Assembly (NCBI GenBank): GCA_964479005.1
Contig: CAYZJA010000002.1
Coordinates: 161,278-225,277 of the forward strand
Source of the DNA: an uncultured Candidatus Saccharibacteria bacterium
Lineage (GTDB): Bacteria; Patescibacteriota; Minisyncoccia; UBA6257
Direction: 5' to 3'
Length of the DNA: 64,000 bases
In this document: piece by piece, positions 24,100-45,406 of the stretch
Numbering within the stretch: position 1 is the stretch's first letter
Layout of the letters: every line of letters starts with the position of its first letter
Notes under the pieces: generated by a model
What the model was told of the DNA's origin: nothing
Databases searched by the model: none
What the model saw: only the letters and a program-made list of their open reading frames with translations
Program-made: the position numbers and the translations under genes

Positions 24100-24113
24100 T
24101 ATAAAATTAAAAT

Positions 24114-25532: not shown

Positions 25533-25553
25533 AAACCAAAAACAGAGAATATT

Positions 25554-28261: not shown

Positions 28262-28326
28262 CATATGAAAAATTTTATATTCAATCAATTTATGGGATAC
28301 CATATAATTATTAATAAAAAAGTAAA

Positions 28327-29064: not shown

Positions 29065-29623
29065 AGTAATTAAAACTCCAATTAAAGATCTTGTAATAAT
29101 AGAAACGAAAATATTCAAAGATGATAGGGGATTTTTTATAGAAAGTTATAATTCAAAAGATTTTACTGATATTGGAGTTAATGGTCACTTTGTGCAAGAT
29201 AATCATTCGATGTCAAAAAAAGGAGTTTTGAGAGGGTTACATTTTCAGTTTAAACATTCTCAAGGGAAGCTTGTTCGGGTAATTTCAGGAAAGGTATTTG
29301 ATGTTGCAGTTGATTTAAGGTTAAACTCGTCAACTTTTGGGAAATGGTATGGAGTGGAACTTTCTGGTAATAATGGACTTCAATTTTATATACCTTCTGA
29401 CTTTGCTCACGGTTTTCTTACCCTTCAAGAAAATACACATTTCTTTTATAAATGTACTGATTTTTACTGTCCTGATGATGAATTGGGAATTATATGGGAT
29501 GATAAAGATATAGGTATCCAGTGGCCTTTATCTCAAGTTGAGAAGATTATAATTTCCAAGAAAGACAGTCAGTTACCCCCTTTTAGTGAAGTGAGGAGGA
29601 TATTAGAAAAAGAAAATTCTTGA
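29051..29623 (+). CDS. rfbC: dTDP-4-dehydrorhamnose 3,5-epimerase
   Basis: Cupin fold with RGFFIESYN…RGLHFQ…QGKLVRV…HGF. Confidence 0.9.
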   Translation: MEKFKVIKTPIKDLVIIETKIFKDDRGFFIESYNSKDFTDIGVNGHFVQDNHSMSKKGVLRGLHFQFKHSQGKLVRVISGKVFDVAVDLRLNSSTFGKWYGVELSGNNGLQFYIPSDFAHGFLTLQENTHFFYKCTDFYCPDDELGIIWDDKDIGIQWPLSQVEKIIISKKDSQLPPFSEVRRILEKENS

Positions 29624-31501: not shown

Positions 31502-31521
31502 TAAAAATTTACAACTTAAAC

Positions 31522-32535
31522 ATGATTTCAGTAGTCGTTGTTTATAACAATCAACGAACTTTAAACGAGATTTTATTAAAGAGCTTAAAAAATCAGACAG
31601 TTAAATATGAACTTATTGCTCTTGATAATACTAAAGGACAGTTTAAATCAGCGGCTGAAGCATTAAATTTTGGTGGGGAAAAAGCAACTGGAAAATATAT
31701 AATGTTTGTCCATCAGGACGTAGAGTTAGGTTCTGATTCATGGTTAGAAAAAGTTGAAAAGCTCTTGGATAATATACCTGATCTTGGAATTGCTGGTGTA
31801 GCGGGAATGAGTGAAAAAGGAAAAAGTAACAAGGAAAGGGGAAGGGGGTATATTAGTGATTCTGGCGAAATATGGCAATGGAGCAACTCTGTACAAAAGC
31901 CAGAAGAAGTCCAAACTTTAGATGAGTGTCTTCTAATAGTGCCAAAGGCTGTATTTGATAATATAAAATTTGATGAAAAAATATTTGATAATTGGCACTG
32001 TTATGGTGCCGATTATTCTTTATGCGTTAGAGAAAAAGGATTAAAAGCCTATGTAATCCCAGCTTTTATTTATCATAGGTCTTTAAGAGTAAATATAAAT
32101 GGGTTATTAAAATATCAAAAAATGTTATATAAAAAGTATCAAAAAAATTATAAACACATTTTTTTGACAACTGGTGAAATTTCTTGGGTAAAACTTATGT
32201 TGCGAACCATAGGAGCATTTTTACACCCTTTTTATAAGAAATTTTTTCCGACTTGGATAGAGAAACTAAAAAGAAAGCTTTCCGATTGCAAAACGGTTTT
32301 AGATTTAGGATGTGGTTACAATTCTCCAATTCAATATTGTAAAGTATCTTTTTCAGTTGGAGTTGAATTATTTGAACCTTATTTGCAAGAAAGCAAAAAA
32401 AGGGGCATTCATAACCAATATATAAAAGCAGACATTAGAAAAGTTGAATTCGGATCGAAATCTTTTGATGCTGTTCTATGTTTGGAAATTCTTGAACATT
32501 TACCAAATGATAATTTTATATTTATAAAAAAATGA
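31522..32535 (+). CDS. Two-domain protein: N-terminal GT-A (family 2-like) glycosyltransferase fused to a C-terminal class I SAM methyltransferase domain
   Basis: N-terminus VVVVYNN…LIALDNT…FVHQDVEL (DxD-like). C-terminus VLDLGCGYNSPI…AVLCLEILEHLPND (MTase motifs I and post-II). Confidence 0.55.
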   Translation: MISVVVVYNNQRTLNEILLKSLKNQTVKYELIALDNTKGQFKSAAEALNFGGEKATGKYIMFVHQDVELGSDSWLEKVEKLLDNIPDLGIAGVAGMSEKGKSNKERGRGYISDSGEIWQWSNSVQKPEEVQTLDECLLIVPKAVFDNIKFDEKIFDNWHCYGADYSLCVREKGLKAYVIPAFIYHRSLRVNINGLLKYQKMLYKKYQKNYKHIFLTTGEISWVKLMLRTIGAFLHPFYKKFFPTWIEKLKRKLSDCKTVLDLGCGYNSPIQYCKVSFSVGVELFEPYLQESKKRGIHNQYIKADIRKVEFGSKSFDAVLCLEILEHLPNDNFIFIKK

Positions 32536-33674
32536 AAATTTTATTCGTATCGCATTCCTCTAATTTATACGGAGCTGAGAGAGTTTTATTAGATCTAGTA
32601 ATAGGGTTGAGGGGTAAAAAGATAGAATCAATGGTAATACTACCATCTTTTGGTCCTTTATGTGAAAAATTAAAAAAAGAACAAATAAAATACAAAATCA
32701 TTCCTTTTAAAGGATGGGCATCAGGATCATCATCATTTTTTAAAAGAATTTTAAGGATTATCTTTAATATTTTTGCAGTACCTCGTTTTTATTTACTTAT
32801 TCGTAAAGAAAAGCCAGATCTTATTGTTACAAGCTCTGCCGTTACCCCTCCCATAGGAGCAATAGTTGCTTACATTTTTCACATACCTCATTTTTGGTAT
32901 ATCCATGAGCTTGTTGAAAAGAAGCAAGGCCTTAGCTATAATTTAGGTATTAATTTTTCAACTAAGTTAATTAATAAATTTTCTAAGTTAGTTATTGTTA
33001 ATTCCATTGCGGTAAAAAATAAATATAAAAATTATATTCCAGAAGGTAAGTTAAAGTTAATTTATTGCGGAATTGAATTAAAAGAAAAAGAGAGAGGTGA
33101 AATTGGAAACATTATTTTGAACCATTACGAAGATTACTTTCAACTTTGTACTGTTGCTTACATCAGCTCAGGCAAGGGCCAAATGGATGCGGTACGAACC
33201 ATCAACTTATTGGTGAAAGAAGGATATAAAGTTGTTTTGTTCATAGTTGGTGGTGGCGACTCAGACTATATTGCTGAAATAAAACAATTTATCAATATTC
33301 ACCACTTAGAAAATAATATATTTTTAAGCGGTTTTTTGGAAAATCCTAAAAAAATTTATGAAATAAGTGATGTTTCATTGATGTGCTCTCGGATGGAAGC
33401 ATTTGGGAGAGTGACGGTTGAAGCTATGTTGCACAAAAAACCGATTATAGGAGCCCGAAGTGGTGGTACCCTTGAATTAATCAAGGAAGGTTTTAATGGT
33501 TTTTTCTATGAACCAGGTAATTTTACAGAACTCGCAGAAAAGATAAAATATTTAATAAATAATAAAACAGAAAGACTGAAGATGGGTGAAAATGCTTATT
33601 GGTGGGCGAAGGAAAAGTTTTCTCTACAAAAGTTTATAGAAGAGTTTTATAAAATATGCCAAAAGTTTCTATAA
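32532..33674 (+). CDS. Glycosyltransferase family 4 (GT-B, group 1)
   Basis: C-terminal EAFGRVTVEAMLHKKPIIGARSGGTLELIKEGFNGF (E-x7-E region). Confidence 0.8.
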   Translation: MKILFVSHSSNLYGAERVLLDLVIGLRGKKIESMVILPSFGPLCEKLKKEQIKYKIIPFKGWASGSSSFFKRILRIIFNIFAVPRFYLLIRKEKPDLIVTSSAVTPPIGAIVAYIFHIPHFWYIHELVEKKQGLSYNLGINFSTKLINKFSKLVIVNSIAVKNKYKNYIPEGKLKLIYCGIELKEKERGEIGNIILNHYEDYFQLCTVAYISSGKGQMDAVRTINLLVKEGYKVVLFIVGGGDSDYIAEIKQFINIHHLENNIFLSGFLENPKKIYEISDVSLMCSRMEAFGRVTVEAMLHKKPIIGARSGGTLELIKEGFNGFFYEPGNFTELAEKIKYLINNKTERLKMGENAYWWAKEKFSLQKFIEEFYKICQKFL

Positions 33675-33763
33675 TAATTCTTAATTGGAATAGATATAAA
33701 AATAAAGAAATTATGAAAGACTCAAATCAAAACTGGGCTGGTACAGGTATACTATATATATGA
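33656..33763 (+). pseudogene. N-terminal stub (35 codons) of a GT2 glycosyltransferase (MPKVSIIILNWNR…), first of two repeated stubs
   Basis: Shares about 45 bp (CCAAAAGTTTCTATAATAATTCTTAATTGGAAT.GAT) with the second stub at 34641. Overlaps the GT4 stop. Confidence 0.55.
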
Positions 33764-33924
33764 ATATAGCAGTATTAGAATTTTTTTAGATAACTTTAAG
33801 AAGCAAGAATTTGCAAAAATGAAAAATGTCAGAAGATTTTTTTACTCGTTAAGAGAAGTAGGTTTTAAAAAAAACGATATCTAAGCTTATTTTAAAATTT
33901 ATAGAACACAGCGTTTATACGCAA

Positions 33925-34635
33925 ATGAATAATTTTAAAAGCGTTGAAGAATATTTTCAGAATAAAATAGGATTAGAAATAGGCGGACCAAGCAACTTCT
34001 TTACTAAAAATGGTTGCATGCCGATTTATCAGATTGTATCAAGATTAGATGGAGTAAATTTTTCCTCAACGACTGTTTGGACAGGGAGCATTGATTCGTC
34101 AAAAGGGTATTTGGTAGGGGGAAAATGTTTTGGAAAACAGTTTATTTTAGACGCAACTGATTTGTCAAAATTGGATAAAGGAACATATGATTTTGTTTTG
34201 TCTTGCAATAATATTGAGCATGTGGCTAATCCATTAAGGGCTATTGAACAATGGGTGTCTATGTTAAAATCAAATGGGGTTATCGTTATCGTTGCCCTTA
34301 GGAAAGAATCAAATTTTGATCATAATCGCAATATTGTAAAATTTACTCATCTTCTTGAAGATTATAATAATAATATTCAGGAAAACGATCTCGGACATTT
34401 GGAAGAAATATTGAAACTACATGATTTAACATTAGACCCACCGGCTGGCACGATAGAACAGCTTAAAGAAAGAAGTTTGAAAAATTTTGAAAATTGTTGT
34501 TTGCATCAACATATTTTTGATTTAAATGTTTTGTCTGAAATTTATATTTATTTCAAATTGTCAATTGTTGCAAAATTTGAGATTCAGACCGATTATGTGA
34601 TAATTGGCGTGAAAGATATCTTTATTAAAGGATAA
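33925..34635 (+). CDS. Class I SAM-dependent methyltransferase (type 11-like), candidate sugar O-methyltransferase
   Basis: …LEIGGPSNFF…VLSCNNIEHVANPLRAIEQWVSMLKSNGVIVI…. Confidence 0.6.
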   Translation: MNNFKSVEEYFQNKIGLEIGGPSNFFTKNGCMPIYQIVSRLDGVNFSSTTVWTGSIDSSKGYLVGGKCFGKQFILDATDLSKLDKGTYDFVLSCNNIEHVANPLRAIEQWVSMLKSNGVIVIVALRKESNFDHNRNIVKFTHLLEDYNNNIQENDLGHLEEILKLHDLTLDPPAGTIEQLKERSLKNFENCCLHQHIFDLNVLSEIYIYFKLSIVAKFEIQTDYVIIGVKDIFIKG

Positions 34636-34640
34636 AAAAG

Positions 34641-34715
34641 ATGACTCCAAAAGTTTCTATAATAATTCTTAATTGGAATGGATGGAAAGATGATAAATTT
34701 TTTTTTGAAATATAA
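34641..34715 (+). pseudogene. Second GT2 N-terminal stub (MTPKVSIIILNWNGWKDDKFFFEI*), ending in a T9 homopolymer just before the intact GT2 gene
   Basis: Near-identical 45-bp repeat of 33658-33703. Followed by the poly-T tract and the next start codon. Confidence 0.55.
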
Positions 34716-34717
34716 TT

Positions 34718-35623
34718 ATGAATCAATTTAAGGTTACAGCAATCGTAGTGGCTTACTTCCCGGAGAGTCAAATTATTACTGAGACTATACAAAGTATTTA
34801 TAAACAAGTAAGCCAGGTGTTGATTATAGATAATACTCCAAATGGCAGTAATGTGTTTCAAAATCTTAAATTATTAAGAGAAGATAATAACATTAAGCTT
34901 ATTACGCTTAACCAAAATACTGGTATAGCTCATGCTCAAAATGTTGGCATAAAAAAAGCGTTAGAGGATAAAGCTGATTTTGTTTTATTAAGCGATCAAG
35001 ATACTTTTTATCCAAGTGATTATGTGGATGAAATGCTCGAGGCATATTATAAGCTTGCTAATAGAGAAAAAGTAGCTGCCATTGCTCCTAATGTTTCTAA
35101 TGTAAATTGTGAGGGTAGAAAACAAATATTTATACAATTTAACGGTATTTTTAATAAAAGAATATATTTCCAAAATGGTTGCCATGAAATAACTGAAGTT
35201 ATGGCATCTGGCATGATTATTCCATCAAGAGTGTTCAATGATATTGGTTTTATGGATGAAGAGTTATTTATAGATTGGGTTGATTTAGAATGGGGCTGGA
35301 GAGCAAAGGCGAAAGGTTATAAATTAATTGGTTGCAATGACGTTGTTATTAGACACCATTCAGGGGAAGTGGTGATAAAGATTGGACGGCGTTTATATAC
35401 TACCTGGCCTCCGATCAGACATTATTATATAGTCCGTAACATGATTCATTTAGCTTTAAGAAGTAAATATATAACATTCGGGAGGAGATTAAACCTTTTT
35501 ATCAAATCTGTAAAATATATTGTTGGATATACTATTTTGGGTAAGCCCCACTGGAAATACTTTGCATATTCTCTAAAAGGTTTTTATCATGGAATTACAA
35601 AACAGTTAGGCCCTTATAAGTAA
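34718..35623 (+). CDS. Glycosyltransferase family 2 (rhamnosyltransferase-like)
   Basis: VTAIVVAYFPE…IIDNTPNG…LSDQD (DxD)…. Confidence 0.7.
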   Translation: MNQFKVTAIVVAYFPESQIITETIQSIYKQVSQVLIIDNTPNGSNVFQNLKLLREDNNIKLITLNQNTGIAHAQNVGIKKALEDKADFVLLSDQDTFYPSDYVDEMLEAYYKLANREKVAAIAPNVSNVNCEGRKQIFIQFNGIFNKRIYFQNGCHEITEVMASGMIIPSRVFNDIGFMDEELFIDWVDLEWGWRAKAKGYKLIGCNDVVIRHHSGEVVIKIGRRLYTTWPPIRHYYIVRNMIHLALRSKYITFGRRLNLFIKSVKYIVGYTILGKPHWKYFAYSLKGFYHGITKQLGPYK

Positions 35624-35646
35624 TAATTCTATAATTATCCTAAATT

Positions 35647-36678
35647 ATGTCTTATAATTTTTACACATTTTTTGATAAAAATTTCTTTTATAAAGGATTG
35701 ACTTTATACCGTTCTTTACAAAAAACTTGTAGCGATTTTGTTTTATTTGTTTTATGCGGTGACGAAATTACTTTTGATCTTTTGTATAAAATGAATTTGA
35801 ACAATGTTAAATTAATTACTTTACAAGAACTTGAAAAAGAAGATACTGATTTGTTGTTAATTAAAAATACTCGTACCCATATAGAATATTTGTGGACAAC
35901 CAAAGCTTCCCTATCATTATTTCTATTTAAAAAGTATCCTCAATTGGAAACATTATCATATCTAGATGCTGATTTATATTTTTTTAACAATCCTCAAGTT
36001 TTTTTTGATGAATTAAATAATGATTCTATTTTAATAATAAAAAGCGATCTTTCAATAGAGTATGAAAGATTATTATCACAAGCGCCATATAATACTCAAT
36101 TTATTATTTTCAAGAATAATCCAGAGAGTATTAAAGTTTTAGAATGGTGGCGTAAAAAACTTATTGAACGATGTTATGGAAGACCTAGTAGCTTGTTGTT
36201 TTGGAGGAATTATAGAAACAAAAAGATGCAAGGCGCAGATCAAATATATTTAAGTGATTGGACGACAAGATTCAAAGGAATTCACGTTTTACAAAATAAA
36301 AAATTTTGTTTAGGGCCTTGGAATGTAACTAAATACCATATTTTTTTGAAAGATAATATGATTTATGCAGAAGATACAAAATTGATATTTTATCATTTTC
36401 ATAGTTTTGAAATTAATAATGCGAATAGATTCACTTTAGCGGATGGTGCTTATAGAATCAATAAATCAGTGAAAGAATTGATATATCGTCCTTATATCGC
36501 AGAAATTAAATCAATACTCGAAGGTATCAAGAAACTAGATCCTAATTTTCACTATGGTATCATAAAGAAAACTCTCAAAAAGAGAATGAGATTCTTTGCC
36601 AAAAGAATATTCTATGATTATTATCGTTTTTTAAATTTATTTTCGAAAAATATAAATTATAAAAAGATTAATCTTTGA
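35647..36678 (+). CDS. Putative GT-A-fold glycosyltransferase with DxD motif (nucleotide-diphospho-sugar transferase-like)
   Basis: …LSYLDADLYFFNNPQ… (DxD). No TM segment. Glycan-cluster context. Confidence 0.4.
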   Translation: MSYNFYTFFDKNFFYKGLTLYRSLQKTCSDFVLFVLCGDEITFDLLYKMNLNNVKLITLQELEKEDTDLLLIKNTRTHIEYLWTTKASLSLFLFKKYPQLETLSYLDADLYFFNNPQVFFDELNNDSILIIKSDLSIEYERLLSQAPYNTQFIIFKNNPESIKVLEWWRKKLIERCYGRPSSLLFWRNYRNKKMQGADQIYLSDWTTRFKGIHVLQNKKFCLGPWNVTKYHIFLKDNMIYAEDTKLIFYHFHSFEINNANRFTLADGAYRINKSVKELIYRPYIAEIKSILEGIKKLDPNFHYGIIKKTLKKRMRFFAKRIFYDYYRFLNLFSKNINYKKINL

Positions 36679-36717
36679 TTAGTGAGTTCAATAAAAAATT
36701 ATTTTACTTGAATATTT

Positions 36718-38337
36718 ATGAAAATATTAACTGGTAAAAAGTGGCAAAATGGGTTTTTGGATTATTATCGTATAAGGAAAGAATACCGTATCCAGGTTTT
36801 AGCTTGGAAAAATTTGGAAAAAATAGAAGATGCATATTATATTAGGCCAAAAAGCTTAAAAATGGCTCTGAGATATTTACCAATAGTTGGCCCTTATGGA
36901 TTATTTACAAAAGCTTGGTCTCGATGGCGCGAACAAAGACGTAATGACAAATATGTTTCATGTGGCATAGGAAAAATTACCGAAATAGGGAATAATTCAG
37001 AATTTAAAGTTAATGATGTGGTGGCTTTTATTGCACCACTTCATCCTCCTTTAGTGGAACGCTTGACTCTGCCTAAAGAGTTTATTTTTAATATTGACAA
37101 AACAATTTTGCCTCAACTACCGCCTAAAGAAATTCTACTTTATCCCTTAGGGCAAAAAAATAAATCAAATCAATGGTGGGAAGAAGTTATTAGTTGGAGC
37201 ATTTATTCGGGAATAGATGTTTCAGAAGAATTAAGAAAAAAATTAGAGGAAGGTTTGATTAAGGAAATTCAAAATACTAAGTGGAATAATTGCGAAAAGT
37301 TTGATATTGAAACTCCAACAAAAATAAGAGAAATAAAGGGCGAGGTGAAAAAATTGGATCCCCAGAGAAAGACCGGAGTTCTTTTTGGTTTTGGCAATTA
37401 TGCCAAAACGAATATTGTTACTTTCATGAAATCTTTTGTTAATATTACTACTATCCATGAGATTGACCCCACAGAAATTTGGGAAAGAAGCGCCCAAAAA
37501 TGGGATTCAAGCCCTTTTCCTCGGAATAATGAAAAATACGATGTTTATTTTATAGCTAGCTATAATCACACCCATACCCCAATAGCGCTTTATGCCTTAA
37601 AACAGGGAGCATATGCGGTTGTTGAAAAACCAGTAGCAATGGATTATAAGGAATTAGAAGAAATTGAAAAAACATTAAGAGAGGTTGGGCCTAAGATTTT
37701 TATTGGTTTTCATAAAAGATATTCAGTTTTTAATGAATGGGCTTTTGAAGATTTAAATGCAAAACATGGTGAGCCAATTTCTTATCATTCTATTGTTTAT
37801 GAAATAAGCCAGCCTAAATATTTTTGGTATACATGGCCTGTTTCACGAAGTACTTTTCTTGCCAACGGTTGTCATCAGATTGATCATTTCTTGTGCCTTA
37901 ATAATTTTAGCAAACCTAAAGATTTTGATATTAAATTATTACAAGATAATGCAATTGAAGTATGGATAGAATTAGAAAATGGGGCAGTTTTTACCACAAC
38001 CTTTAGTGAAAAAGGTAGTACTAGAGTAGGACCAAGAGATCATGTCGAATTAAAAGTTCCTGGTAGAAATGTAAGAATAACTGATAATATTTTGTATCTT
38101 TCAGAAGATGAATCAAGGATTATTAGAAAAAAGAGAATGTTTAAGACAAACAGTTATCGAAATATGTATTTGAAAATTGGTGCTAAGATAGCTAATAACG
38201 AAGATGGGGATTCAATTGAATCAATTTTAGTTTCTACAAAATTAATGTTGGATTTAGAAGAAAGATTACAGAAAATGAAAGGTTGGGGTGATAGATATAT
38301 AAAGGCTAAAGAAAAATTTTGGGGATACTTTAAATAA
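36718..38337 (+). CDS. Gfo/Idh/MocA-family NAD(P)-dependent sugar oxidoreductase with an uncharacterised N-terminal extension of about 215 aa
   Basis: Rossmann core …GVLFGFGNYAKTN…YDVYFIASYNHTHTPIALYALKQGAYAVVEKPVA… begins near residue 218. The N-terminal part has no recognisable motif. Confidence 0.6.
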   Translation: MKILTGKKWQNGFLDYYRIRKEYRIQVLAWKNLEKIEDAYYIRPKSLKMALRYLPIVGPYGLFTKAWSRWREQRRNDKYVSCGIGKITEIGNNSEFKVNDVVAFIAPLHPPLVERLTLPKEFIFNIDKTILPQLPPKEILLYPLGQKNKSNQWWEEVISWSIYSGIDVSEELRKKLEEGLIKEIQNTKWNNCEKFDIETPTKIREIKGEVKKLDPQRKTGVLFGFGNYAKTNIVTFMKSFVNITTIHEIDPTEIWERSAQKWDSSPFPRNNEKYDVYFIASYNHTHTPIALYALKQGAYAVVEKPVAMDYKELEEIEKTLREVGPKIFIGFHKRYSVFNEWAFEDLNAKHGEPISYHSIVYEISQPKYFWYTWPVSRSTFLANGCHQIDHFLCLNNFSKPKDFDIKLLQDNAIEVWIELENGAVFTTTFSEKGSTRVGPRDHVELKVPGRNVRITDNILYLSEDESRIIRKKRMFKTNSYRNMYLKIGAKIANNEDGDSIESILVSTKLMLDLEERLQKMKGWGDRYIKAKEKFWGYFK

Positions 38338-38354
38338 CTGAATTTATCTTCTTT

Positions 38355-39569
38355 ATGAAGAAAAATATATTAATTATTTCAGATTCTTACCCCCCAGAAA
38401 TTCGTTCAGCAGCACAATTGATGAAAGATTTGGCCGAAGGTCTACGCGGCAAGGGATATAATATTTGGGTTGCTACTTCTTATCCAAAATACAACTTAGT
38501 GGATTCAGGAGATAGTGTTTGGCCTAAAATTGCAGATGAGGATGGAGTAAAGGTGTTACGTATTAAAACCCTATCCCACCACAAGGTAAATTTTATTATT
38601 AGAGGGATAGCTCAGCTTTTGATGCCCTATATTTTTTTTCGCGAGATTAAAAAAAATATTAAAGAAAAAATTGATATTACGATTGTGCACAGTCCGCCTC
38701 TACCATTAACAATTGTTGCTTCTAAAATAAAGAGATTTTATAAGGCAAAATATATCCTTAATCTTCATGATATATTCCCGCAAAATGCGATTGATCTGGG
38801 AATTTTAAGGAATAAATTTCTTATTAAGTTTTTTGAATGGATGGAAAGTAAGGCATATCAAAACCCTGATTTAATTGTTGTCCCTTCAAATGCGCATAAA
38901 AGATTTATTGAGGAAAAGAGAAATGTTCCAAAACAAAAAGTACACGTTATATATCACTGGATAGATATTGGTCCATTTTTGCAATTAAAAAAAACAGGCA
39001 AATTTAGAAAATTATATGATATAGAAGACAAATTTGTATTTTTATTTGGAGGGGTGATTGGACCGTCTCAAGGACTAGATTTATTAATTAGAATAGCAAA
39101 TAGAGTAAAAGAAAATAAAGATATAGTTTTTCTCTTAGTTGGTGATGGTTCGGCTAAAGATAGCTTAGTTAAGATGGCAGAAAAATTGAAGCTTAAAAAT
39201 ATTATTTTCAAGTCATTTGTTTCTTCAGAAGAATATCCAGAATTGGTTAAAGATTGTAATATTGGCGTAGCTTGTCTTACAGATAAAAATACAACGCCAG
39301 CAGTTCCAGCAAAGATTTTAGGATATATGGCGGCTAACATTCCAGTTGTTGGTTTTTTACATAAGGAAAGTGATGGTTTTGAAGTAATTTGGGAAGCCAA
39401 ATGTGGTTATGCCGTAAATGTTGGCGATCTTGATAAAGCAGTAGAAATCGTCAGAAAAATTTACAACGAGAAAGATAAATTAAAAGAATTAGGCAATAAT
39501 GGCTTTCAATATGCCTTAAATAATTTTACAATCGATGTTTGTTTAAATAAATTAGAAAAGCTATTTTAG
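38355..39569 (+). CDS. Glycosyltransferase family 4 (WbuB-like)
   Basis: MKKNILIISDSYPPE… N-terminus and a GT-B C-terminal domain (…FLFGGVIGPSQGLDLLI…VGDGS…). Confidence 0.75.
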   Translation: MKKNILIISDSYPPEIRSAAQLMKDLAEGLRGKGYNIWVATSYPKYNLVDSGDSVWPKIADEDGVKVLRIKTLSHHKVNFIIRGIAQLLMPYIFFREIKKNIKEKIDITIVHSPPLPLTIVASKIKRFYKAKYILNLHDIFPQNAIDLGILRNKFLIKFFEWMESKAYQNPDLIVVPSNAHKRFIEEKRNVPKQKVHVIYHWIDIGPFLQLKKTGKFRKLYDIEDKFVFLFGGVIGPSQGLDLLIRIANRVKENKDIVFLLVGDGSAKDSLVKMAEKLKLKNIIFKSFVSSEEYPELVKDCNIGVACLTDKNTTPAVPAKILGYMAANIPVVGFLHKESDGFEVIWEAKCGYAVNVGDLDKAVEIVRKIYNEKDKLKELGNNGFQYALNNFTIDVCLNKLEKLF

Positions 39570-39676
39570 AGTTTTATGATGTTTTTGTACCTAGAAAAGC
39601 TGAAATTAAAAGTATTTTTGATAGAGTAAATGGATTTTTGAGAAAAAATATCAAAAATAATGTATAATATAATTAT

Positions 39677-40228
39677 ATGAAAACTATTTATTATTTATTT
39701 CAAAGTTTTCGAATAAGGGATTGGATTGGAAATCTTTTTGTTTTTATTCCTTTAATTTTTGCTGGATTAATATTTGATTGTGGGTTTTTTCTCAAGGCAG
39801 CAGAGGCATTCTTCTTATTTAGTTTATCTGCTAGCGCAGTTTCTATTTTGAATGATGTTTTGGATATAGAAAAAGATAAAAAACATCCAGAAAAATCTAA
39901 AAGGCCTATTGCTTCAGGTAAATTAAATTCCGGCATTGCTTTATTTGTTAGCTTGATTTTAATAGTTTTAAGCCTATGGCTTGCCATACAGATTAATTTA
40001 AAGTTTACACTTTTATTTTCTTTATTTATTATCTTAGATATTGTTTATAGTTTATGGCTAGCAAAAGTGCGTTTTGTTAATTCTATTTTCGTGGCATTAA
40101 CTTATGCATTGAGAGTTTATGCAGGTGGGGCCATTATTAATCTATCTTTAAACATTTGGTATTTTATTTTTAGTTTTCTATTTGGTTTATTTCATTTCTT
40201 TTATAAAAAGAAAAAAGAGCATCAATAA
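39677..40228 (+). CDS. UbiA-superfamily prenyl/phosphoribosyl-transferase, N-terminal half only (first Asp-rich motif present, second absent); possibly a truncated gene
   Basis: …ILNDVLDIEKDKKHPEKSKRPIASGKL… is the UbiA NDxxDxxxD…RP(I/L)xSG motif. The protein stops at 183 aa, before the expected second DxxxD motif, and pgpA starts at its stop codon. Confidence 0.5.
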   Translation: MKTIYYLFQSFRIRDWIGNLFVFIPLIFAGLIFDCGFFLKAAEAFFLFSLSASAVSILNDVLDIEKDKKHPEKSKRPIASGKLNSGIALFVSLILIVLSLWLAIQINLKFTLLFSLFIILDIVYSLWLAKVRFVNSIFVALTYALRVYAGGAIINLSLNIWYFIFSFLFGLFHFFYKKKKEHQ

Positions 40229-40698
40229 TGGATTTTAAAAGTAATTACAAAAACTTTTTTGTAAAATTTTTTGCAACATGTTTTGGTCTAGGTTATAGCC
40301 CTATCTTTCCTGGAGCGTTAGGAGTGGCTTTTGGGGCTCTAATCGCGTATTTAGTTCATCCATTACCTTTCTTTATTAAAATTCTAATAACATTATCTTT
40401 AATTGTTTTTGCTGTTCCTTTAAGCACTAAAGCTGAAAAACTTTTTCAGAAAAAAGACTGTAAAAAGATTATTATTGATGAGGTTGTTGGTGTATTAATA
40501 GCTACAATTTGGTTTACAAATCTATCTATAATTATGTTTATTCCCATTTTGTTTATTTATGGCTTATTTGATGCCATAAAAATATATCCCGCTAATGTGA
40601 GTGAAAATCTTTATGGCGGATGGGGGATTGTAATTGATGACATTATCGCAGGTCTTTATACAGCATTAACAGTTTTTATGTTATTAAAATTTGTTTAA
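40228..40698 (+). CDS. pgpA: Phosphatidylglycerophosphatase A family protein
   Basis: GLGYSPIFPGALGVAFGA, DEVVGVLIA and GGWGIVIDDIIAGL match PgpA's conserved GSGLSPxxPGTxGS, DEFxG and GGxGIMxDDxxAG blocks. Confidence 0.75.
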   Translation: MDFKSNYKNFFVKFFATCFGLGYSPIFPGALGVAFGALIAYLVHPLPFFIKILITLSLIVFAVPLSTKAEKLFQKKDCKKIIIDEVVGVLIATIWFTNLSIIMFIPILFIYGLFDAIKIYPANVSENLYGGWGIVIDDIIAGLYTALTVFMLLKFV

Positions 40699-40701
40699 AT
40701 T

Positions 40702-42666
40702 ATGATAACAATTAATTTAGGAAGAATTAAAAAAGCTTTTTTTCATCCAAAAGCGGCTTTTTTGTATTTTAGAGAATATTTAGAAGGCAAGTTTTTAAGA
40801 TTTATATCTAAGAGAAAAATTGATTTAAGAAAAGAATTATCCAAGAGGGTTTATAAACATTTAAGAAAGCATTTTATTAGAAGAAAAGAACCAAGATTTT
40901 TTAATGCAAATTTTTTAGAAGAGTTAGCTAATCAGAATTTTATTATAGATAATGCTGATAGAATTTGTAATCAGGAATTTACTTTTTTAGGTATAAATCC
41001 TAAAATCTTAAAAAACATTAAGTGGAATCAAGACATTAAATCAGGCCATATTTGGCCTAATTTGTTTTATTTAGATTTAAGAAAAAAATTTATTCATTCT
41101 TACAACAGGGGGTGGGAGATAAAAATGGTATGGGAATTATCCCGTTTCCAATATGTAATTCCTTTGGCTTTAGCTTTTTATAAGACTGGAGATGAAAAAT
41201 ATTTAAGAAAATGGCAGGAATTGATTTTAGATTGGATAAAAAAAAACCCTGTTTATTTTGGTCCTAATTGGATTAATGCTATGGAAGTTGCAATAAGAGC
41301 TTGTAACTGGATTTTCAGTTGGGAAATAATAATAGCAAGAAACAAAAAACAAAAAACAAGAAACAAACTGGGGAAGGAATTTATAGAGAAGTTTTTAGGT
41401 TCTTTGGTTGAACATGGAAAGTTTATTTATAGAAATTTGGAATATGCTCCAATTAGGTCAAATCATTATTTGTCTGATATTGTCGGTTTGGTTTATTTAG
41501 GAATAATGTTTCCAGAATTTAAAGAGTCAAAGAAATGGTTGAAGAAAGGTTTGAGGGCTTTAGAAGAAGAAATGAAGTTCCAGGTTTATAATGATGGCGT
41601 GGATTATGAACTTTCAATTGCTTATCATCGTTATGTAACGGAGCTCTTTTTATGGGCAGGGAGGCTATGTAAGGAGAATCCTTCGGCATGCTCAGGATTT
41701 AATTTATCTTTAGAATTTTGGGAAAAATTAGAAAAAATGATGGAATTTTCCAAGCACTATGCAAAGCCTAATGGCTTGGCGCCGCAAATAGGGGACGCAG
41801 ATGACGGGAGGTTGCATATTGTTTGGGAAGATTTTTATAATTGGGAAAAAAGAAATCATTTTGCTTTGTTTGAGCTTTATGAGAGGGTATTTAAATCTAA
41901 TGAAGCCCTTCGACAAGCTCAGGGTATAAATAGTAAATCTTTTTCTAAATCAGGATTTTATATTATGAGGGATAAAGATTTTTATTTAATTACAGGCAGA
42001 AATAAATGCTGTTATGGAAAAGGGGGAAGTCATGTACATAATGATATTTTAAGTTTTGAATTATCAATGCTTGGAAATGATTTTATTATTGATCCAGGTA
42101 CTTATGTTTATACTTCCGATTTTAAAGCAAGGAATAAATTTCGTAAAACAAGAGCTCATAATACAGTTATGATAGATAATGAGGAACAGAATCCTATATC
42201 TGAAGATCCGTTTTATATAGAACAAACAGGGGAATTAACAGTAAACCAATGGGAAACAAAAGGAGAAGGGATTATCTTAGAGGCAGAACATAATTGTTAT
42301 GAAAGATTAAGATGTTCTGTTATTCATAATCGTACATTCTCTTTTAATAAAAAAGAGAGGGCTTTGTATATCAAAGATAAATTTAAAGGTAGAGGTGATC
42401 ATGAATTAGAATGGAATTTTCATCTTTCCCCTAAAATCAAGATTTGGGTTAAAGAAAACAAAGCAGAGTGCAAAGAAGCTATTCTTATTGGGAATAACGG
42501 TTCTTTAATATTTTCTGTTCCTAAGATTTTAAATTGTGTTATTATAGAAGATAGAGTTTCTTTGTCTTATGGAAATAGAATTCCAGCAAAAACTATTCGT
42601 TTTACAGGATTTCTAAAGCAGGGCTTTCCAAGAGAATATAAGTTTAGTTTTAGGCCTTTAAAATAA
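40702..42666 (+). CDS. Heparinase II/III-like protein (alginate-lyase-like N-terminal domain plus Hepar_II_III C-terminal domain)
   Basis: …APIRSNHYLSDIVGLVYLG… and …GGSHVHNDILSFELSMLGNDFIIDPGTYVYT…. Confidence 0.65.
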   Translation: MITINLGRIKKAFFHPKAAFLYFREYLEGKFLRFISKRKIDLRKELSKRVYKHLRKHFIRRKEPRFFNANFLEELANQNFIIDNADRICNQEFTFLGINPKILKNIKWNQDIKSGHIWPNLFYLDLRKKFIHSYNRGWEIKMVWELSRFQYVIPLALAFYKTGDEKYLRKWQELILDWIKKNPVYFGPNWINAMEVAIRACNWIFSWEIIIARNKKQKTRNKLGKEFIEKFLGSLVEHGKFIYRNLEYAPIRSNHYLSDIVGLVYLGIMFPEFKESKKWLKKGLRALEEEMKFQVYNDGVDYELSIAYHRYVTELFLWAGRLCKENPSACSGFNLSLEFWEKLEKMMEFSKHYAKPNGLAPQIGDADDGRLHIVWEDFYNWEKRNHFALFELYERVFKSNEALRQAQGINSKSFSKSGFYIMRDKDFYLITGRNKCCYGKGGSHVHNDILSFELSMLGNDFIIDPGTYVYTSDFKARNKFRKTRAHNTVMIDNEEQNPISEDPFYIEQTGELTVNQWETKGEGIILEAEHNCYERLRCSVIHNRTFSFNKKERALYIKDKFKGRGDHELEWNFHLSPKIKIWVKENKAECKEAILIGNNGSLIFSVPKILNCVIIEDRVSLSYGNRIPAKTIRFTGFLKQGFPREYKFSFRPLK

Positions 42667-42684
42667 TGGAAACAATTTTAGAAA

Positions 42685-43995
42685 ATGTTGCAAAATAAAA
42701 TAAAATCTACATTTTTAATAATAGGGGATTTGCTCGTTTTCTATTTATCTCTGTATCTGGCAATATTATTAAGGCATAGTTTGCCCTTTAATAAAGAGAT
42801 ATTTTTCCAGTGTTTTTTGCCTTTTTCTTTTATTTTCTTAATTTGGATTATTTTATTCTCTATAAGCCATCTTTATGAATTAAGGCACGCAGCTAACAGG
42901 AAAAAGTTTTTTGAAATGGTTTTTAAGCTGTTTAGCTTTGCGGCTATTATTTCCGTTATCTATTTTTATTTATTTGTTCCTTCTTTTGCTCCAAAAAAGG
43001 TTTTGTTTTTAACTCTTACTTTTTCTTTTATCCTTTTTCTAATCTGGAGAATTATTTTCAACCGTATTATAAAAATTCCCAGAATTAATGTTTTAATCAT
43101 TTCTAAAATAAAAGAAGCCAGTGAAATAAATATGTTTTTGAAAAAACATCCTCAGATTGGATATGATGTAATTAAGATTTTGCCTCCAGAAGAAATAAAC
43201 CAAACAGCAAAAGAATTAAAAGAAAGTGATATTGATTTGTTTGTGCTTGATTCTAATTTATTTGATTCTTTGCTTTCTTATGTCCCTGACGCCAGACTCA
43301 AATTAAAAGTCGTTGATATTATTGATTTTTACGAATCTGTTTTACAAAAAACTCCGGTTGATCTTCTTCCATCATCATGGTTTTTGGAAAATTATTACAG
43401 TAAGAATTGGGAGTTATACAAGACATTAAAAAGGGTCTCTGATATTTTCGGTGGCATTATATTATTTATTCTTTCTTTACCGCTTTGGCCGATTATTGCG
43501 TTGTTAGTTAAATTGAATTCAAATGGGCCTGTTTTGCACAAATCTGTACGCATTGGGTCAAAGGACAAAGAGTTTCATATCTATAAATTTAGAACTATGT
43601 TTGATAAAGCAGATAAGATTGGGCCTTCCTGGACATTAGAAAACGATCCTCGTGTAACTCGGATTGGAAAGATTCTTAGATTTTTGCATTTAGACGAGAT
43701 TCCTCAAGTTTTAAATATTATCAAAGGCGATGTTTCTTTTGTTGGTCCTAGGCCAGAGGAAAAGAAATTAGTCGGTTTATTCAAGAAGAAGATTCCATTT
43801 TACCAGTTTCGTCTGTTAATTAAACCAGGAGTGATTGGTTGGGCGCAGATTAATTATCCACACAGCGCTTCAGTAGAGGATGCGCAGGAGAAATTGAAAT
43901 ACGATTTTTATTATTTGAAAAATAGGAATATATTTTTTGATGTTATTATTGCTTTAAAGGCATGGCGGATACCTTTTGAGATTCCTACGCATTAA
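42685..43995 (+). CDS. Polyprenyl-phosphate hexose-1-phosphate transferase (WbaP/CpsE-type 'bacterial sugar transferase'), the priming enzyme
   Basis: N-terminal TM helices. C-terminal …GPVLHKSVRIGSKDKEFHIYKFRTM…RVTRIGKILRFLHLDEIPQVLNIIKGDVSFVGPRP…. Confidence 0.85.
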   Translation: MLQNKIKSTFLIIGDLLVFYLSLYLAILLRHSLPFNKEIFFQCFLPFSFIFLIWIILFSISHLYELRHAANRKKFFEMVFKLFSFAAIISVIYFYLFVPSFAPKKVLFLTLTFSFILFLIWRIIFNRIIKIPRINVLIISKIKEASEINMFLKKHPQIGYDVIKILPPEEINQTAKELKESDIDLFVLDSNLFDSLLSYVPDARLKLKVVDIIDFYESVLQKTPVDLLPSSWFLENYYSKNWELYKTLKRVSDIFGGIILFILSLPLWPIIALLVKLNSNGPVLHKSVRIGSKDKEFHIYKFRTMFDKADKIGPSWTLENDPRVTRIGKILRFLHLDEIPQVLNIIKGDVSFVGPRPEEKKLVGLFKKKIPFYQFRLLIKPGVIGWAQINYPHSASVEDAQEKLKYDFYYLKNRNIFFDVIIALKAWRIPFEIPTH

Positions 43996-44100
43996 GGCTT
44001 GATTTTTGAGGGAAAATGGAGTATAATAAGAATCAAGTGGGTGTTTGTTGTTTTAATAAAAAACTTTGTTTTTCATCAAAACAACCCAACTATTTGTTGC

Positions 44101-44135
44101 ATTTCCGCTCTGTTTACAGAGCGGAAATTTTTTAT
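44101..44135 (+). terminator. Intrinsic terminator after the glycan operon (ATTTCCGCTCTG-TTTA-CAGAGCGGAAAT plus T-tract)
   Basis: 12-bp perfect stem followed by TTTTTTA. Lies inside the spurious ORF 44016-44255. Confidence 0.7.
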
Positions 44136-44251
44136 TCTGTTATTGGGTTGACTTTTGATTTAATATGTTTACACTTTATTTGGGGTCTGGAGGCTGAGCA
44201 CTCACTTATAACAAATAGTATAGGAGTATACCCTTCCAGGCCCCACTTCTT

Positions 44252-45190
44252 ATGAAAACTCCCCGTTGGATAAAAGAAAATATTTCTTTAAAAGAATACA
44301 ACACTTTTCGTATTAACGGAAAGACGAAATATTTTACAAAAATATCTTCAAAAGATAAATTGATAAGAACTTTACATTGGGCAAAAGAGAATTCTTTGCC
44401 TGTTTTTATTTTGGGAAATGGTTCAAACATTTTATTTTCTGATAAAGAATATCAGGGAATAATAATTAAGATAGAAAATAATAAAATAAAAAAGATAAAT
44501 AAAAAAACAATTGTTGTCGGAGCCGGAATGATGTTGATGGAATTATTGCAAAAATTTTTAAATAAAGGGTTTGAAGGTTTAGAATGGGCTAATGGAATTC
44601 CAGCAACAGTTGGCGGAGCAGTTTTTTGTAATGCTGGCGGCTTTGGATATGATTTTGGAAAATTTGTAAAAAAAGTTAGAACTATAGATTTAAAAACATG
44701 TAAAGAAAGAATATATTCACAAAAGGATTGTAAATTTCAATACAGGGGAAGTATCTTTAAGAAGAATCAAGAAATCATCTGGGAAGTTGAAATCTTTATT
44801 AAGAAAGGGGATAAAGCAAAAACAGGCAATATATTAAGGGAAAAAACAAAGAATTATTGGCAGTATAAGCTTAAGATAGGCTTATTTAGATATCCTTCAG
44901 CCGGGAGTATTTTTAAAAATATTTTTGCCAAAGATGTTCCTTCAAAATATAGAAAAGGGGCGACTATAAAAAAAGGAAAGATTTCTACTGGTTGGTTTAT
45001 TCAAAAATGCAATCTAAAAGGGAAAAAATATGGCGGAGCAATGATTTCTGATTTCCATGCTAATGTAATTATTAATATTAAAAACGCAAAAGCAAAAGAT
45101 GTGTTACATTTGATCAATCTTTGCAAGAAAAAAGTTTATAAAAAATTTAAGATTGAATTAAAAGAAGAAATTATTGTTATTGACTATTGA
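44252..45190 (+). CDS. murB: UDP-N-acetylenolpyruvoylglucosamine reductase
   Basis: …FRINGKTKYF…ILGNGSNILFSD… and GGAVFCNAGGFGYDFG. Confidence 0.85.
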   Translation: MKTPRWIKENISLKEYNTFRINGKTKYFTKISSKDKLIRTLHWAKENSLPVFILGNGSNILFSDKEYQGIIIKIENNKIKKINKKTIVVGAGMMLMELLQKFLNKGFEGLEWANGIPATVGGAVFCNAGGFGYDFGKFVKKVRTIDLKTCKERIYSQKDCKFQYRGSIFKKNQEIIWEVEIFIKKGDKAKTGNILREKTKNYWQYKLKIGLFRYPSAGSIFKNIFAKDVPSKYRKGATIKKGKISTGWFIQKCNLKGKKYGGAMISDFHANVIINIKNAKAKDVLHLINLCKKKVYKKFKIELKEEIIVIDY

Positions 45191-45406
45191 CATATTCTTT
45201 TTTAGAGTTAAAATTATAACAGTGGACAACTAACAACTAACAAATAACAATAAATAATAATTATAAATCTTTTTATTAATCGTTTTTTTGTTAATTGTTG
45301 ATTGATTTGGAAATTAAATAATAAAAACAAGCAGTGTCCATTTATGGATAACCTGTTATTACTTCTTAAGGTTGGTCGTCTGCTTGATTTAAAAAAATAA
45401 AAAAAC

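Follow-up and report, generated by a model that had tools for sequence, protein, structure and literature searches.

Our study showed that the 183-aa ORF in the window (the whole 64-kb stretch of DNA analysed; Table 1) is a short paralogue of the Rv3806c-type polyprenyl-phosphate phosphoribosyltransferases which, judged by its conservation, is functional and held under purifying selection. The short form was shown to have arisen once, in a Paceibacteria (CPR) lineage, and to be cut exactly at the cytoplasmic end of TM6. The initial annotation, which rightly described a truncated UbiA ORF overlapping the start of pgpA, had wavered between a pseudogene and an unusual split or short form, and had named widespread, conserved homologues of about this length as the finding that would speak against a pseudogene. 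Conserved ~180-aa homologues are indeed widespread, and the short-form alternative therefore stands: about 46 protein clusters of 180-196 aa, with 95-55% identity, terminate at the same point with different tails. Across 45 sequences 43 columns are invariant (~23% of columns), with conservation reaching H173, Y176 and K177, and dN/dS is 0.07-0.33 for the short ubiA and equally low for pgpA (0.13-0.26). By a distance method the short family is monophyletic (100/100 bootstraps) and its sister is the full-length protein P0047 (98/100 bootstraps), the gene for which precedes a short copy and its pgpA by 1.1 kb in loci L006 and L007. Twenty-three near-invariant substitutions are specific to the short family, including E43, E72, S74, E129, H173 and Y176.

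Table 1. Features of the short ubiA-pgpA region, in positions of the window
Feature	Position	Strand	Description
Short UbiA/DPPR-synthase-like gene	39677..40228	+	183 aa plus stop, ATG start, TAA stop; six TM helices, N-in/C-in
First Asp-rich motif, N59-D60-x-x-D63-x-x-x-D67	39851..39877	+	Mg2+/diphosphate site; Rv3806c N73, D74, D77, D81
Cytoplasmic-loop-1 box, K73-S-K-R76-P-I-A-S-G81	39893..39919	+	Rv3806c K87, R90 = beta-phosphate ligands
C-terminal basic tail, K177-K180 (AAA AAG AAA AAA)	40205..40216	+	Cytoplasmic end of TM6; A-tract suspected of a frameshift
TAATG stop/start overlap of short ubiA and pgpA	40226..40230	+	TAA 40226-40228, ATG 40228-40230, last A common to both
Divergent PgpA-family membrane phosphatase gene	40228..40698	+	156 aa; PF04608 full length
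Heparinase II/III-like protein gene	40702..42666	+	Separated from pgpA by 3 nt; as a neighbour, conserved only within the subclade of the window
Polyprenyl-phosphate phosphoglycosyl transferase (PGT) gene (Bac_transf/EPS_sugtrans)	42685..43995	+	TIGR03025, 302 bits, above cut-off
Terminator-like hairpin	44101..44128	+	Follows the PGT gene; 12-bp stem and T-run; pattern match only

The placement of the ORF in the UbiA family, with the Rv3806c-like DPPR synthases closest, was upheld by NCBIfam, by the PDB sequence match and by the fold match alike. Pfam UbiA (PF01040) scored 80.5 bits against a gathering score of 34.2 (E=1.5e-22), although this match spans only positions 25-155 of the 250 in the profile. 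The top NCBIfam model was PRK08238.1, 'UbiA family prenyltransferase' (NF006088), with 139.8 bits, below its cut-off of 351, over positions 194-357 of 482; within 0.2 bits of it came decaprenyl-phosphate phosphoribosyltransferase (NF008977), with 139.6 bits, below its 234-bit cut-off, over positions 2-179 of 297. The ORF thus aligns to the first ~180 positions only of DPPR-synthase models of ~300 positions, and to positions 1-182 of a full-length family HMM of 309. Rv3806c was also the best PDB sequence match (E=1.8e-21, query 8-173 = Rv 18-187). The AlphaFold2 model (pLDDT 92.8) has six long helices, at residues 13-33, 35-62, 85-106, 108-126, 134-153 and 160-182, and its best Foldseek match was 8j8j_A (TMq 0.82; TMt 0.53, with ~53% of 8j8j covered), so that the predicted fold is that of TM1-6 of Rv3806c (bundle 1 plus TM6), without TM7-9. 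All solved UbiA-superfamily structures that were matched (8j8j/8j8k, 7bpu/6m31, 4tq3-4tq6, 4od4/4od5) are full-length proteins of 266-290 residues and, to our knowledge, all characterised UbiA members have at least eight TM helices in two bundles. The short UbiA lacks this complete 8-9-TM two-bundle fold, together with the second substrate-binding motif, which lies on the loop that follows TM6. Both the first Asp-rich motif and the RPxxSG-type box reported for the ORF are present and invariant in the family: the former (N59-D-V-L-D63-I-E-K-D67 in the window) in 45/45 short-family and 70/70 full-length sequences, and the latter at K73 and R76 throughout the short family. The ORF had also been said to stop before the second Asp-rich motif; the truncation was borne out, but not the identity of the motif, as the region past the truncation point in the DPPR-synthase clade is a basic 'GKRxxE' cytoplasmic loop. 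The short UbiA terminates exactly at the first lysine of this loop, K177, which aligns with the K of the full-length 'GKR' and is invariant in 67/67 aligned short and full-length sequences.

Rv3806c (8J8J/8J8K; PMC10994848) was therefore the best sequence and structural counterpart, sharing its TM1-6 architecture with the short UbiA, and a comparison of their ligands, with the roles of N73, D77 and the other residues assigned as in PMC10994848, revealed an uneven pattern of conservation. Nine positions (R22, N73, D74, D77, D81, K87, R90, Y138 and R160, Rv numbering) are invariant in 45/45 short sequences, and these include every PRPP pyrophosphate/Mg2+ ligand (R22, N73, D77, K87, R90 and Y138), identical in the two proteins. 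In contrast, K28, Y70 and K143 of Rv3806c are all replaced in the window protein, which at the PRPP 5'-phosphate/ribose sites carries G18 for K28, S56 for Y70 and D121 at position 135, and at the alpha-phosphate ligand A129 for K143. Across the short family K28 is retained in 18/45 sequences (G, M or other in 27/45), Y70 in 25/45 (S or C in 20/45) and K143 in 0/45 (E in 44/45, A in the window protein); in full-length relatives each of the three is invariant (70/70), and position 135 is N in 52, Q in 10 and H in 8. K28, Y70 and N135 are still present in one subclade of the short family (P0029- and P0038-like). E72 and S74 are short-family-specific replacements of F86 and K/R88. Rv3806c further has TM7-9, which form most of bundle 2, and cytoplasmic loops CL3 and CL4, none of which is present in the short UbiA. 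In Rv3806c the polyprenyl-phosphate cavity is formed by TM7-9 with TM1 and TM6, TM7 is the interface of a trimer that is required for activity, and donor binding is assigned to bundle 1 and lipid binding with trimerization to bundle 2 (PMC10994848). Without TM7-9, the short UbiA has neither this cavity (TM1 + TM6-9) nor the TM7 trimer interface. A bundle 1 plus TM6 protein under purifying selection would directly test this division of labour between donor and lipid in UbiA enzymes.

The partner of the short UbiA is a PgpA-family protein that has itself lost three hallmark residues. PF04608 matched the 156-aa ORF with 111.7 bits against 28 (E=3.4e-32, profile positions 1-140 of 141), the NCBIfam PgpA equivalog PRK11068 gave 66.3 bits, below its 226-bit cut-off, and the predicted structure has a pLDDT of 92.2 with no extra helices compared with an ordinary PgpA. 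Like E. coli PgpA, it is of the same size, matches PF04608 over its full length and has all the invariant acidic residues: it retains D77, D84, E85, D115, D137 and D138, of which E85 is found in 136/144 family representatives and the other five in 144/144. Unlike E. coli PgpA, it is the product of a glycan locus and is coupled there to a UbiA stub, and it has lost Thr30 (T30->A), Ser/Thr33 (S/T33->V) and Arg112 (R112->G), which are conserved in 129/144, 125/144 and 135/144 representatives and belong to the near-invariant PG-T-x-G-S/T motif and the FR-x-FD arginine. These changes are common to all PgpAs paired with a short UbiA, plus the PgpA L009b, whose locus has a full-length UbiA, and, read from the residues, could mean that the paired PgpA has lost its phosphatase activity. 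The TM helices of PgpA normally hold a lipid phospho-ester headgroup beside the acidic metal site. We also considered whether PgpA is a remote homologue of the missing UbiA half; an hhalign comparison revealed no homology (probability 1.4%), and the idea was rejected.

Translational coupling of the short UbiA gene to pgpA, as proposed from the overlapping codons, was corroborated by its recurrence. The TAATG overlap, the usual junction, is also found in L001, L003, L006, L011-L013, L017, L119 and L131, and elsewhere the two genes overlap by 4 or 17 nt or are separated by 2-29 nt; pgpA directly follows the short ubiA in 50/50 evaluable loci (17/17 + 33/33). Among ~100 full-length UbiA loci a nearby PgpA was seen in only four: L009 and L136, where it lies beside a full-length DPPRS-like gene and the locus also has a GT-C and an epimerase, and L031 and L045, where it adjoins a full-length DPPRS-like gene. 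No UbiA-PgpA fusion occurs among the best 150 PgpA representatives, the sole long hit there being a PgsA-PgpA fusion (P0389), and our literature search on UbiA with PgpA, or on polyprenyl phosphoribosyltransferases in Patescibacteria, returned nothing relevant.

The surroundings of the pair are those of a conserved flank (the pair, PGT, MurB and SecA) of a hypervariable glycan island, rather than of its variable cassettes. The gene order ubiA(short)-pgpA-(hep)-PGT-MurB-SecA is constant, with the PGT following the pair wherever the locus extends far enough, and the upstream genes vary. This constancy may reflect only the close relatedness of the genomes compared, in which SecA is 78-90% identical. 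The putative hairpin after the PGT gene probably ends a ubiA(short)-pgpA-hep-PGT transcription unit; a promoter scan returned 39 sites, hardly more than the 35.7 expected. No GT-C family match was found among the 37 ORFs scanned in the window, and phmmer searches with the GT-Cs of L006 and L009 found no GT-C in loci with the short pair alone, their homologues occurring only where a full-length UbiA is present.

The likeness of the window pair to the DPPR synthase/phosphatase pair is an analogy and not that of a homologous pair, as the partner phosphatase of Rv3806c is Rv3807c and that in the window is an unrelated PgpA-family protein. The synthase/phosphatase logic put forward for the window nevertheless holds in relatives, namely in the four full-length loci with PgpA and in the PgsA-PgpA fusion. 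Three-component pentofuranose systems consist of PPPRS, phosphatase and GT-C, for example Citrobacter youngae ORF15/ORF12 (PMC11127046), and share with the window the genetic coupling, within a glycan locus, of a DPPRS-like membrane protein to a phosphatase. L009 and L136 have a complete three-component-like set with a GT-C, whereas the window and the short-form-only loci are without one. The C. youngae phosphatase, a PRP domain of the HAD family, is joined to the N-terminus of a full nine-TM PPPRS (PMC11127046), whereas the window encodes its PgpA-family membrane phosphatase separately, after the gene for the six-TM stub. A second parallel comes from BT_1525, a PgpA-family PIP phosphatase beside its synthase (bioRxiv 10.1101/2021.04.26.441525). 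In both BT_1523/BT_1525 and the PgsA-PgpA fusion, as in the window, a Mg2+-dependent membrane transferase of ~180 aa is encoded directly before a PgpA-family phosphatase or forms one protein with it; the synthases use a diphosphate-linked donor and the phosphatase dephosphorylates their lipid product. However, the PgsA/BT_1523 partner is a CDP-alcohol phosphatidyltransferase (PF01066), unrelated to UbiA, and its substrates are glycerophospholipids. The full-length loci, which combine GT-C, UbiA, epimerase and PgpA, indicate that polyprenyl-P-ribose-5-P may be dephosphorylated by a third class of phosphatase not recognised so far, the PgpA family, in addition to the two already known, Rv3807c and HAD.

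We tentatively propose that the pair is a neofunctionalised, PgpA-dependent two-protein membrane enzyme descended from the DPPR-synthase/phosphatase pathway, which we regard as quite possible but somewhat short of probable. The short UbiA and PgpA would form a single heteromeric membrane enzyme that works at the cytoplasmic face, where the UbiA stub would provide the diphosphate-Mg2+ donor site and PgpA the missing lipid-binding side and the phosphatase step, in a layout like that of the PgsA-PgpA fusions. PRPP is probably no longer the substrate, at least in the subclade of the window, because K28 and Y70 are lost, K143 has become E or, in the window, A, and the cleft, through F86->E and K/R88->S, would be less basic. 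Given the place of the pair in the conserved flank, we favour a generic role, whether in handling of the polyprenyl-phosphate carrier or in priming lipid for the adjacent phosphoglycosyl transferase, over the supply of one side-chain sugar. A narrower version, in which a UbiA fold minus TM7-9 is active solely in a heteromer with a remodelled PgpA that supplies the lipid side of a composite active site, and acts at the cytoplasmic face on a polyprenyl phosphate/diphosphate carrier (for example as a carrier-lipid phosphatase, or as a primer synthase feeding the phosphoglycosyl transferase), seems to us unlikely as specified. If true, this would give the first 'half' UbiA enzyme in nature and add a new activity to the PgpA family. 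The pair would also show the re-use of an enzyme fragment in CPR bacteria with genomes of ~0.55 Mb.

The initial annotation had cast the pair as the producer of a polyprenyl-phospho-sugar donor for the glycan locus, and this now appears doubtful, because TM7-9 are missing, the 5'-phosphate ligands and K143 are lost and no GT-C consumer was found in the window or in short-form-only loci. A related alternative, a residual three-component pathway, is in our judgement improbable. Here the short UbiA would be a PRPP-using polyprenyl-phosphate phosphoribosyltransferase, PgpA would remove the 5'-phosphate and a GT-C encoded elsewhere would use the polyprenyl-P-ribose (or arabinose). It would agree with DPPR synthase as the closest family, the intact Mg2+/diphosphate site, the survival of K28, Y70 and N135 in the P0029-/P0038-like subclade, the place of PgpA in the phosphatase slot beside full-length UbiA, GT-C and epimerase in L009 and L136, and the documented three-component logic (PMC11127046). 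However, it is at odds with the absence of the helices that in Rv3806c form the decaprenyl-phosphate cavity and the activity-requiring trimer, the replacement of K143 in 45/45 sequences and of K28 and Y70 in the window, the confinement of GT-C homologues to full-length-UbiA loci, with none in the window, and the place of the pair outside the variable glycan cassettes.

The loss of K28 and Y70, with the window-unique A129, could instead mean decaying catalysis. A non-catalytic stub, kept as a membrane partner of PgpA (anchor, chaperone or substrate presenter) or for the translation of pgpA, is likewise an outcome we would not expect. It is suggested by the loss of the acceptor-binding half, K28, Y70 and K143, by the obligate translational coupling to pgpA, and by the full-length paralogue in L006, which could do the catalysis. 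Against this, nine Mg2+/diphosphate ligands all invariant among the 45 sequences, with ~23% of columns invariant, would be unusual for a dead enzyme, dN/dS falls to 0.07, and translational coupling by itself would not constrain 183 codons. The family-specific polar invariants E43, E72, H173 and Y176 suggest a new function and not decay.

Less probable still, and distinctly unlikely, is a polyprenyl-diphosphate phosphatase of the cytoplasmic face, in which the stub would have gone back to binding a prenyl-diphosphate/Mg2+ headgroup, PgpA would hydrolyse it and polyprenyl-P would pass to the PGT, MraY and MurB pathways. This proposal is deduction throughout, and we know of no PgpA-family enzyme that uses a diphosphate substrate; moreover, position 129 in the window protein is A instead of E. 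It would account for a diphosphate site kept while the ribose-5-phosphate ligands are lost, and for the constant presence of the pair near a carrier-lipid-using PGT, whatever the content of the glycan cassette. The new acidic residues E72 and E129 in the cleft also recall the prenyl-PP pocket of canonical UbiA enzymes, which is negatively charged and needs a second Mg2+ (PMC10994848).

A pseudogene, an A-tract frameshift error, a programmed -1 fusion or a split gene with its C-terminal half elsewhere, as might be read from an ORF that reaches across only ~60% of the family model, with its end immediately past AAAAAGAAAAAAG, is very improbable. Positions 38613-45203, A-tract included, are 100% identical in three independent assemblies, and this, the conserved truncation point and dN/dS values far below 1 refute a pseudogene or a sequencing or assembly artefact. 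The check for a frameshift at the A-tract was thus negative; the KKKK that it encodes shows synonymous AAG/AAA changes in L119 and L125, and the other short-UbiA subclade ends at the same truncation point in a different, non-homopolymeric tail (KNAFTDEG...). The suggested search for a separate C-terminal half was also negative: tblastn with five full-length relatives gave only noise in the window outside 39677-40219 (E>=0.87), and no such half was seen near ~50 related loci. Residues 176-291 of P0047, used to seek a stand-alone half, returned 34 short hits, mostly contig-end fragments, and the only match on a long contig, P0229, was part of a gene with a frameshift, from an unrelated genome. 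From 40207 into the pgpA ATG the -1 frame of the window is open, as a programmed fusion would require, but in L003, L006 and L011 a stop placed one codon before the ATG shuts the pgpA frame, and in L014, L015 and L129 the two genes stand in a different relative frame, which ruled this candidate out. Short ubiA genes should therefore not be annotated as pseudogene, 'partial' or 4-hydroxybenzoate polyprenyltransferase.

Our analysis showed that the short ubiA gene encodes a six-transmembrane UbiA stub that is under selection, carries a diphosphate site and is obligately co-encoded with a remodelled PgpA, the two being almost certainly co-translated. Both ORFs described in the initial annotation were present (see table) and meet at a TAATG junction, in which the final base of the short ubiA TAA is the first base of the pgpA ATG. 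Short UbiA matched Pfam PF01040 (80.5 bits, E=1.5e-22) over profile positions 25-155 of 250 only. Its top NCBIfam models were 0.2 bits apart, namely NF006088 (PRK08238.1, 'UbiA family prenyltransferase'; 139.8 bits, positions 194-357 of 482) and NF008977 (decaprenyl-phosphate phosphoribosyltransferase; 139.6 bits, positions 2-179 of 297), and it fell under the equivalog cut-offs of both (351 and 234 bits, respectively). The PgpA ORF matched PF04608 at full length (111.7 bits, positions 1-140 of 141). The two UbiA motifs named previously were both found (N59-DVLD-IEK-D67 and K73-SKRPIASG-81), and the protein does stop before the next loop; however, this loop is not the second Asp-rich motif it was taken for, but a basic 'GKRxxE' loop in this clade. 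The protein ends exactly on the opening lysine of this loop, K177, conserved without exception in the 67 aligned short and full-length sequences.

Features of the window discussed in the text
Feature	Position	Strand	Length
YceG-family (MltG-like) ORF	17731-18741		
Glycan locus	~19.6-44 kb		
YceG-family (MltG-like) ORF, shorter	24843-25532		229 aa
Region with TATAAT-like hexamer	39655-39676		
Short UbiA ORF	39677-40228	+	183 aa
PgpA-family ORF	40228-40698	+	156 aa
Terminator-like hairpin	44101-44128		12-bp stem

The closest PDB sequence was Rv3806c, the decaprenyl-phosphate phosphoribosyltransferase (DPPR synthase, DPPRS) of M. tuberculosis (8j8j; E=1.8e-21; query 8-173 to Rv 18-187). An AlphaFold2 model based upon a 67-sequence alignment (pLDDT 92.8) predicted six long helices (13-33, 35-62, 85-106, 108-126, 134-153 and 160-182), and Foldseek aligned this model to 8j8j_A (TM-score 0.82 query-normalised, 0.53 target-normalised). 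In the cryo-EM structure of Rv3806c, bundle 1 (TM1-5) supplies the entire PRPP site, bundle 2 (TM6-9) and TM1 form the decaprenyl-phosphate cavity, and TM7 forms the axis of a trimer whose disruption impairs activity (PMC10994848). Taken with this bundle assignment, the six-helix model shows that short UbiA is bundle 1 plus TM6. The even helix number makes it N-in/C-in, with the basic C-terminal tail on the cytoplasmic side.

The Rv3806c ligands were located in 45 sequences of the short family and in 70 full-length ones. R22, N73, D74, D77, D81, K87, R90, Y138 and R160 (Rv numbering) were invariant in both sets, whereas K28, Y70 and K143, each present in 70/70 full-length sequences, were not retained across the short family. 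K28, a ligand of the 5'-phosphate and the lipid phosphate, was G, M or another residue in 27/45 (G18 in the window), and Y70, a 5'-phosphate ligand, was S or C in 20/45 (S56). The α-phosphate ligand K143 was E in 44/45 and A in the window alone; this Ala129 (GCA, 40061-40063) is one base away from Glu and was present in three independent assemblies. At 23 more positions a near-invariant short-family residue was rare among full-length proteins, such as E43 (W in full-length proteins), E72 (F), S74 (K/R), S136 (V), H173 (L) and Y176 (G). Such a pattern points to altered function rather than decay. The diphosphate-Mg2+ site is strongly constrained, the cleft appears less basic, and the ribose-5-phosphate contacts appear dispensable in the window's subclade.

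Related loci from other genomes and metagenomes placed pgpA directly after short ubiA in 17/17 cases from the first two collections and in all 33 evaluable metagenome loci; the junctions were mostly TAATG, the other gene pairs overlapping by 4 or 17 nt or being separated by 2-29 nt. The paired PgpA retained the six acidic residues that are invariant in the family (D77, D84, E85, D115, D137 and D138). Three hallmark residues were missing from it, namely T30 (conserved as T in 129/144 representatives of the family), S/T33 (in 125/144) and R112 (in 135/144). It showed no homology to the absent UbiA half (hhalign probability 1.4 %), and its model (pLDDT 92.2) had no informative relative among solved structures. 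Of ~100 loci with a full-length DPPRS-like gene, only four carried PgpA nearby: L009 and L136 (CPR), and L031 and L045 (Ignavibacteria). One of the two L009 PgpAs shares the T30, S/T33 and R112 substitutions, and the Ignavibacteria PgpAs keep the Arg. L009 (4525-12487) and L136 (3-2867) encode, in order, a PMT-type GT-C, full-length UbiA, an SDR epimerase and PgpA, to which L009 alone adds a small TM protein (TMEM234-like, 120 aa), a second PgpA, a GT87-like and a heparinase-like protein. This set resembles a full polyprenyl-P-pentofuranose (DPA-like) pathway in which PgpA fills the phosphatase slot, and is analogous to the three-component systems of PMC11127046 and to mycobacterial DPA synthesis. 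If so, PgpA would represent an undescribed third class of 5'-phosphatase, with one SDR taking the place of DprE1/E2. The presence of PgpA beside full-length UbiA in these loci indicates that the association is older than the truncation. GT-C homologues were confined to loci with full-length UbiA, and none was found in the window's glycan locus.

The initial annotation had read the pair as the maker of a polyprenyl-phospho-sugar donor. We favour a generic role in carrier-lipid handling or priming over specific pentofuranose donor supply, because the 5'-phosphate ligands are lost, GT-C is absent, and the pair lies in a conserved flank by the polyprenyl-phosphate phosphoglycosyl transferase (PGT) gene. 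Our tentative proposal is that stub and PgpA together make up a heteromeric enzyme on the cytoplasmic side of the membrane, in which the stub would bind a diphosphate-Mg2+ donor and PgpA would contribute the phosphatase chemistry as well as the lipid-substrate side. A precedent for this layout is P0389, a natural 339-aa fusion of PgsA (CDP-alcohol phosphatidyltransferase, 3-175) to PgpA (197-331) that unites PGP synthase with PGP phosphatase in a single polypeptide; the Bacteroides PIP synthase and its PgpA-like PIP phosphatase provide a second (bioRxiv 10.1101/2021.04.26.441525). No account of a pair of this kind emerged from full-text literature searches on UbiA plus PgpA and on Patescibacteria polyprenyl phosphoribosyltransferases. 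The pair is taxonomically narrow and offers a clean natural experiment on UbiA-fold modularity.

In the way it would work, the system resembles a synthase-phosphatase pair. Short UbiA differs from a bona fide DPPR synthase in its sub-cut-off score, its lack of TM7-9 and its changed K28, Y70 and K143, and the PgpA differs from an orthodox one in scoring below the equivalog cut-off and lacking the T, S/T and R. A residual PRPP-dependent synthase with its 5'-phosphatase is unlikely. That the stub is a catalytically dead accessory subunit is equally unlikely; the ligand losses stand beside an invariant set of diphosphate-site residues. A cytoplasmic polyprenyl-diphosphate phosphatase is less likely still, and overlaps with the heteromeric enzyme proposed here.

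A pseudogene, artefact or split gene is very improbable, given identical sequence in three assemblies, conserved short homologues and low dN/dS. The suspected A-tract frameshift was not borne out, as 38613-45203, including the tract, was 100 % identical between the window and contigs of independent sequencing runs SRR3085435, SRR3095939 and SRR3091719. Protein searches returned ~46 clusters of 180-196 aa, with identity falling from 95 % to 55 %. Conservation in their alignment reaches H173, Y176 and K177, beyond which the tails diverge, reading KKKKEHQ in one subclade and KNAFTDEGVN... in the second; the truncation point is therefore old and independent of the homopolymer. L119 and L125 carry synonymous AAG/AAA changes in the KKKK codons, and pairwise Nei-Gojobori dN/dS was 0.07-0.33 for short ubiA and 0.13-0.26 for pgpA. 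The C-terminal half postulated as a separate ORF was not found by tblastn of the 64-kb window with five full-length relatives, which matched only the N-terminal half. A -1 slip at the A-tract would enter the pgpA frame in the window. In L003, L006 and L011, however, a stop closes this frame, and L014, L015 and L129 have a different relative frame, so that a programmed fusion is not a conserved feature. Elsewhere, pgpA appears as two ORFs (114 and 61 aa) in metagenome contigs L097 (4521-4984) and L098 (4094-4557), and MurB was called as two pieces in L001 (11252-12210); frameshifts or sequencing errors in those assemblies may account for both.

In a neighbour-joining tree (183 shared columns, 100 bootstraps), the short family was monophyletic (100/100) and sister to P0047 (98/100), a full-length protein of 291 aa. 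In L006 and L007, P0047 follows a PMT_2-type GT-C, precedes a DUF362 gene and lies 1.1 kb upstream of the short ubiA-pgpA pair. This monophyly, with a full-length sister beside the short pair, indicates that the short form is a paralogue with a single origin by duplication and truncation. The DUF362 gene (L006:6892-7968) directly follows full-length UbiA in at least 14 loci from many phyla, among them WOR-3, Planctomycetota, Acidobacteriota, Ignavibacteria and CPR (also L153, L038, L047, L087, L054, L026, L139, L037, L059, L086, L075, L044 and L071), and is thus part of a widely conserved pair. Nine of the species genomes scanned carried the short family, all Paceibacterota-type. Paceibacteria-type loci whose bins bear the label 'Methanosarcinales archaeon' or 'Candidatus Saccharibacteria' (L013, CAYWLA010000117.1; L011, L012, L015 and L018) are probably binning or labelling errors.

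Short-form loci share the order ubiA(short)-pgpA-(heparinase-like)-PGT-MurB-SecA, while the glycan genes upstream vary (window 19600-39570 compared to L001, L003, L012 and L100-L132), making the locus a hypervariable glycan island whose 3' flank is conserved. In the window it encodes a pyruvyl transferase, UDP-GlcNAc 2-epimerase, Wzx-type flippase, RmlABCD, GT2 and GT4 glycosyltransferases, methyltransferases and a MocA-type oxidoreductase. The two YceG-family ORFs lie 6 kb apart, the shorter covering profile positions 85-271. The window promoter scan was overall no better than shuffled sequence. The short ubiA ATG is preceded at just ~10 nt by a TATAAT-like hexamer, and no clear Shine-Dalgarno sequence is seen; its mRNA may lack a leader or carry only a very short one. 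A strong terminator-like hairpin with six G-C pairs and a T-run separates the PGT gene from murB.
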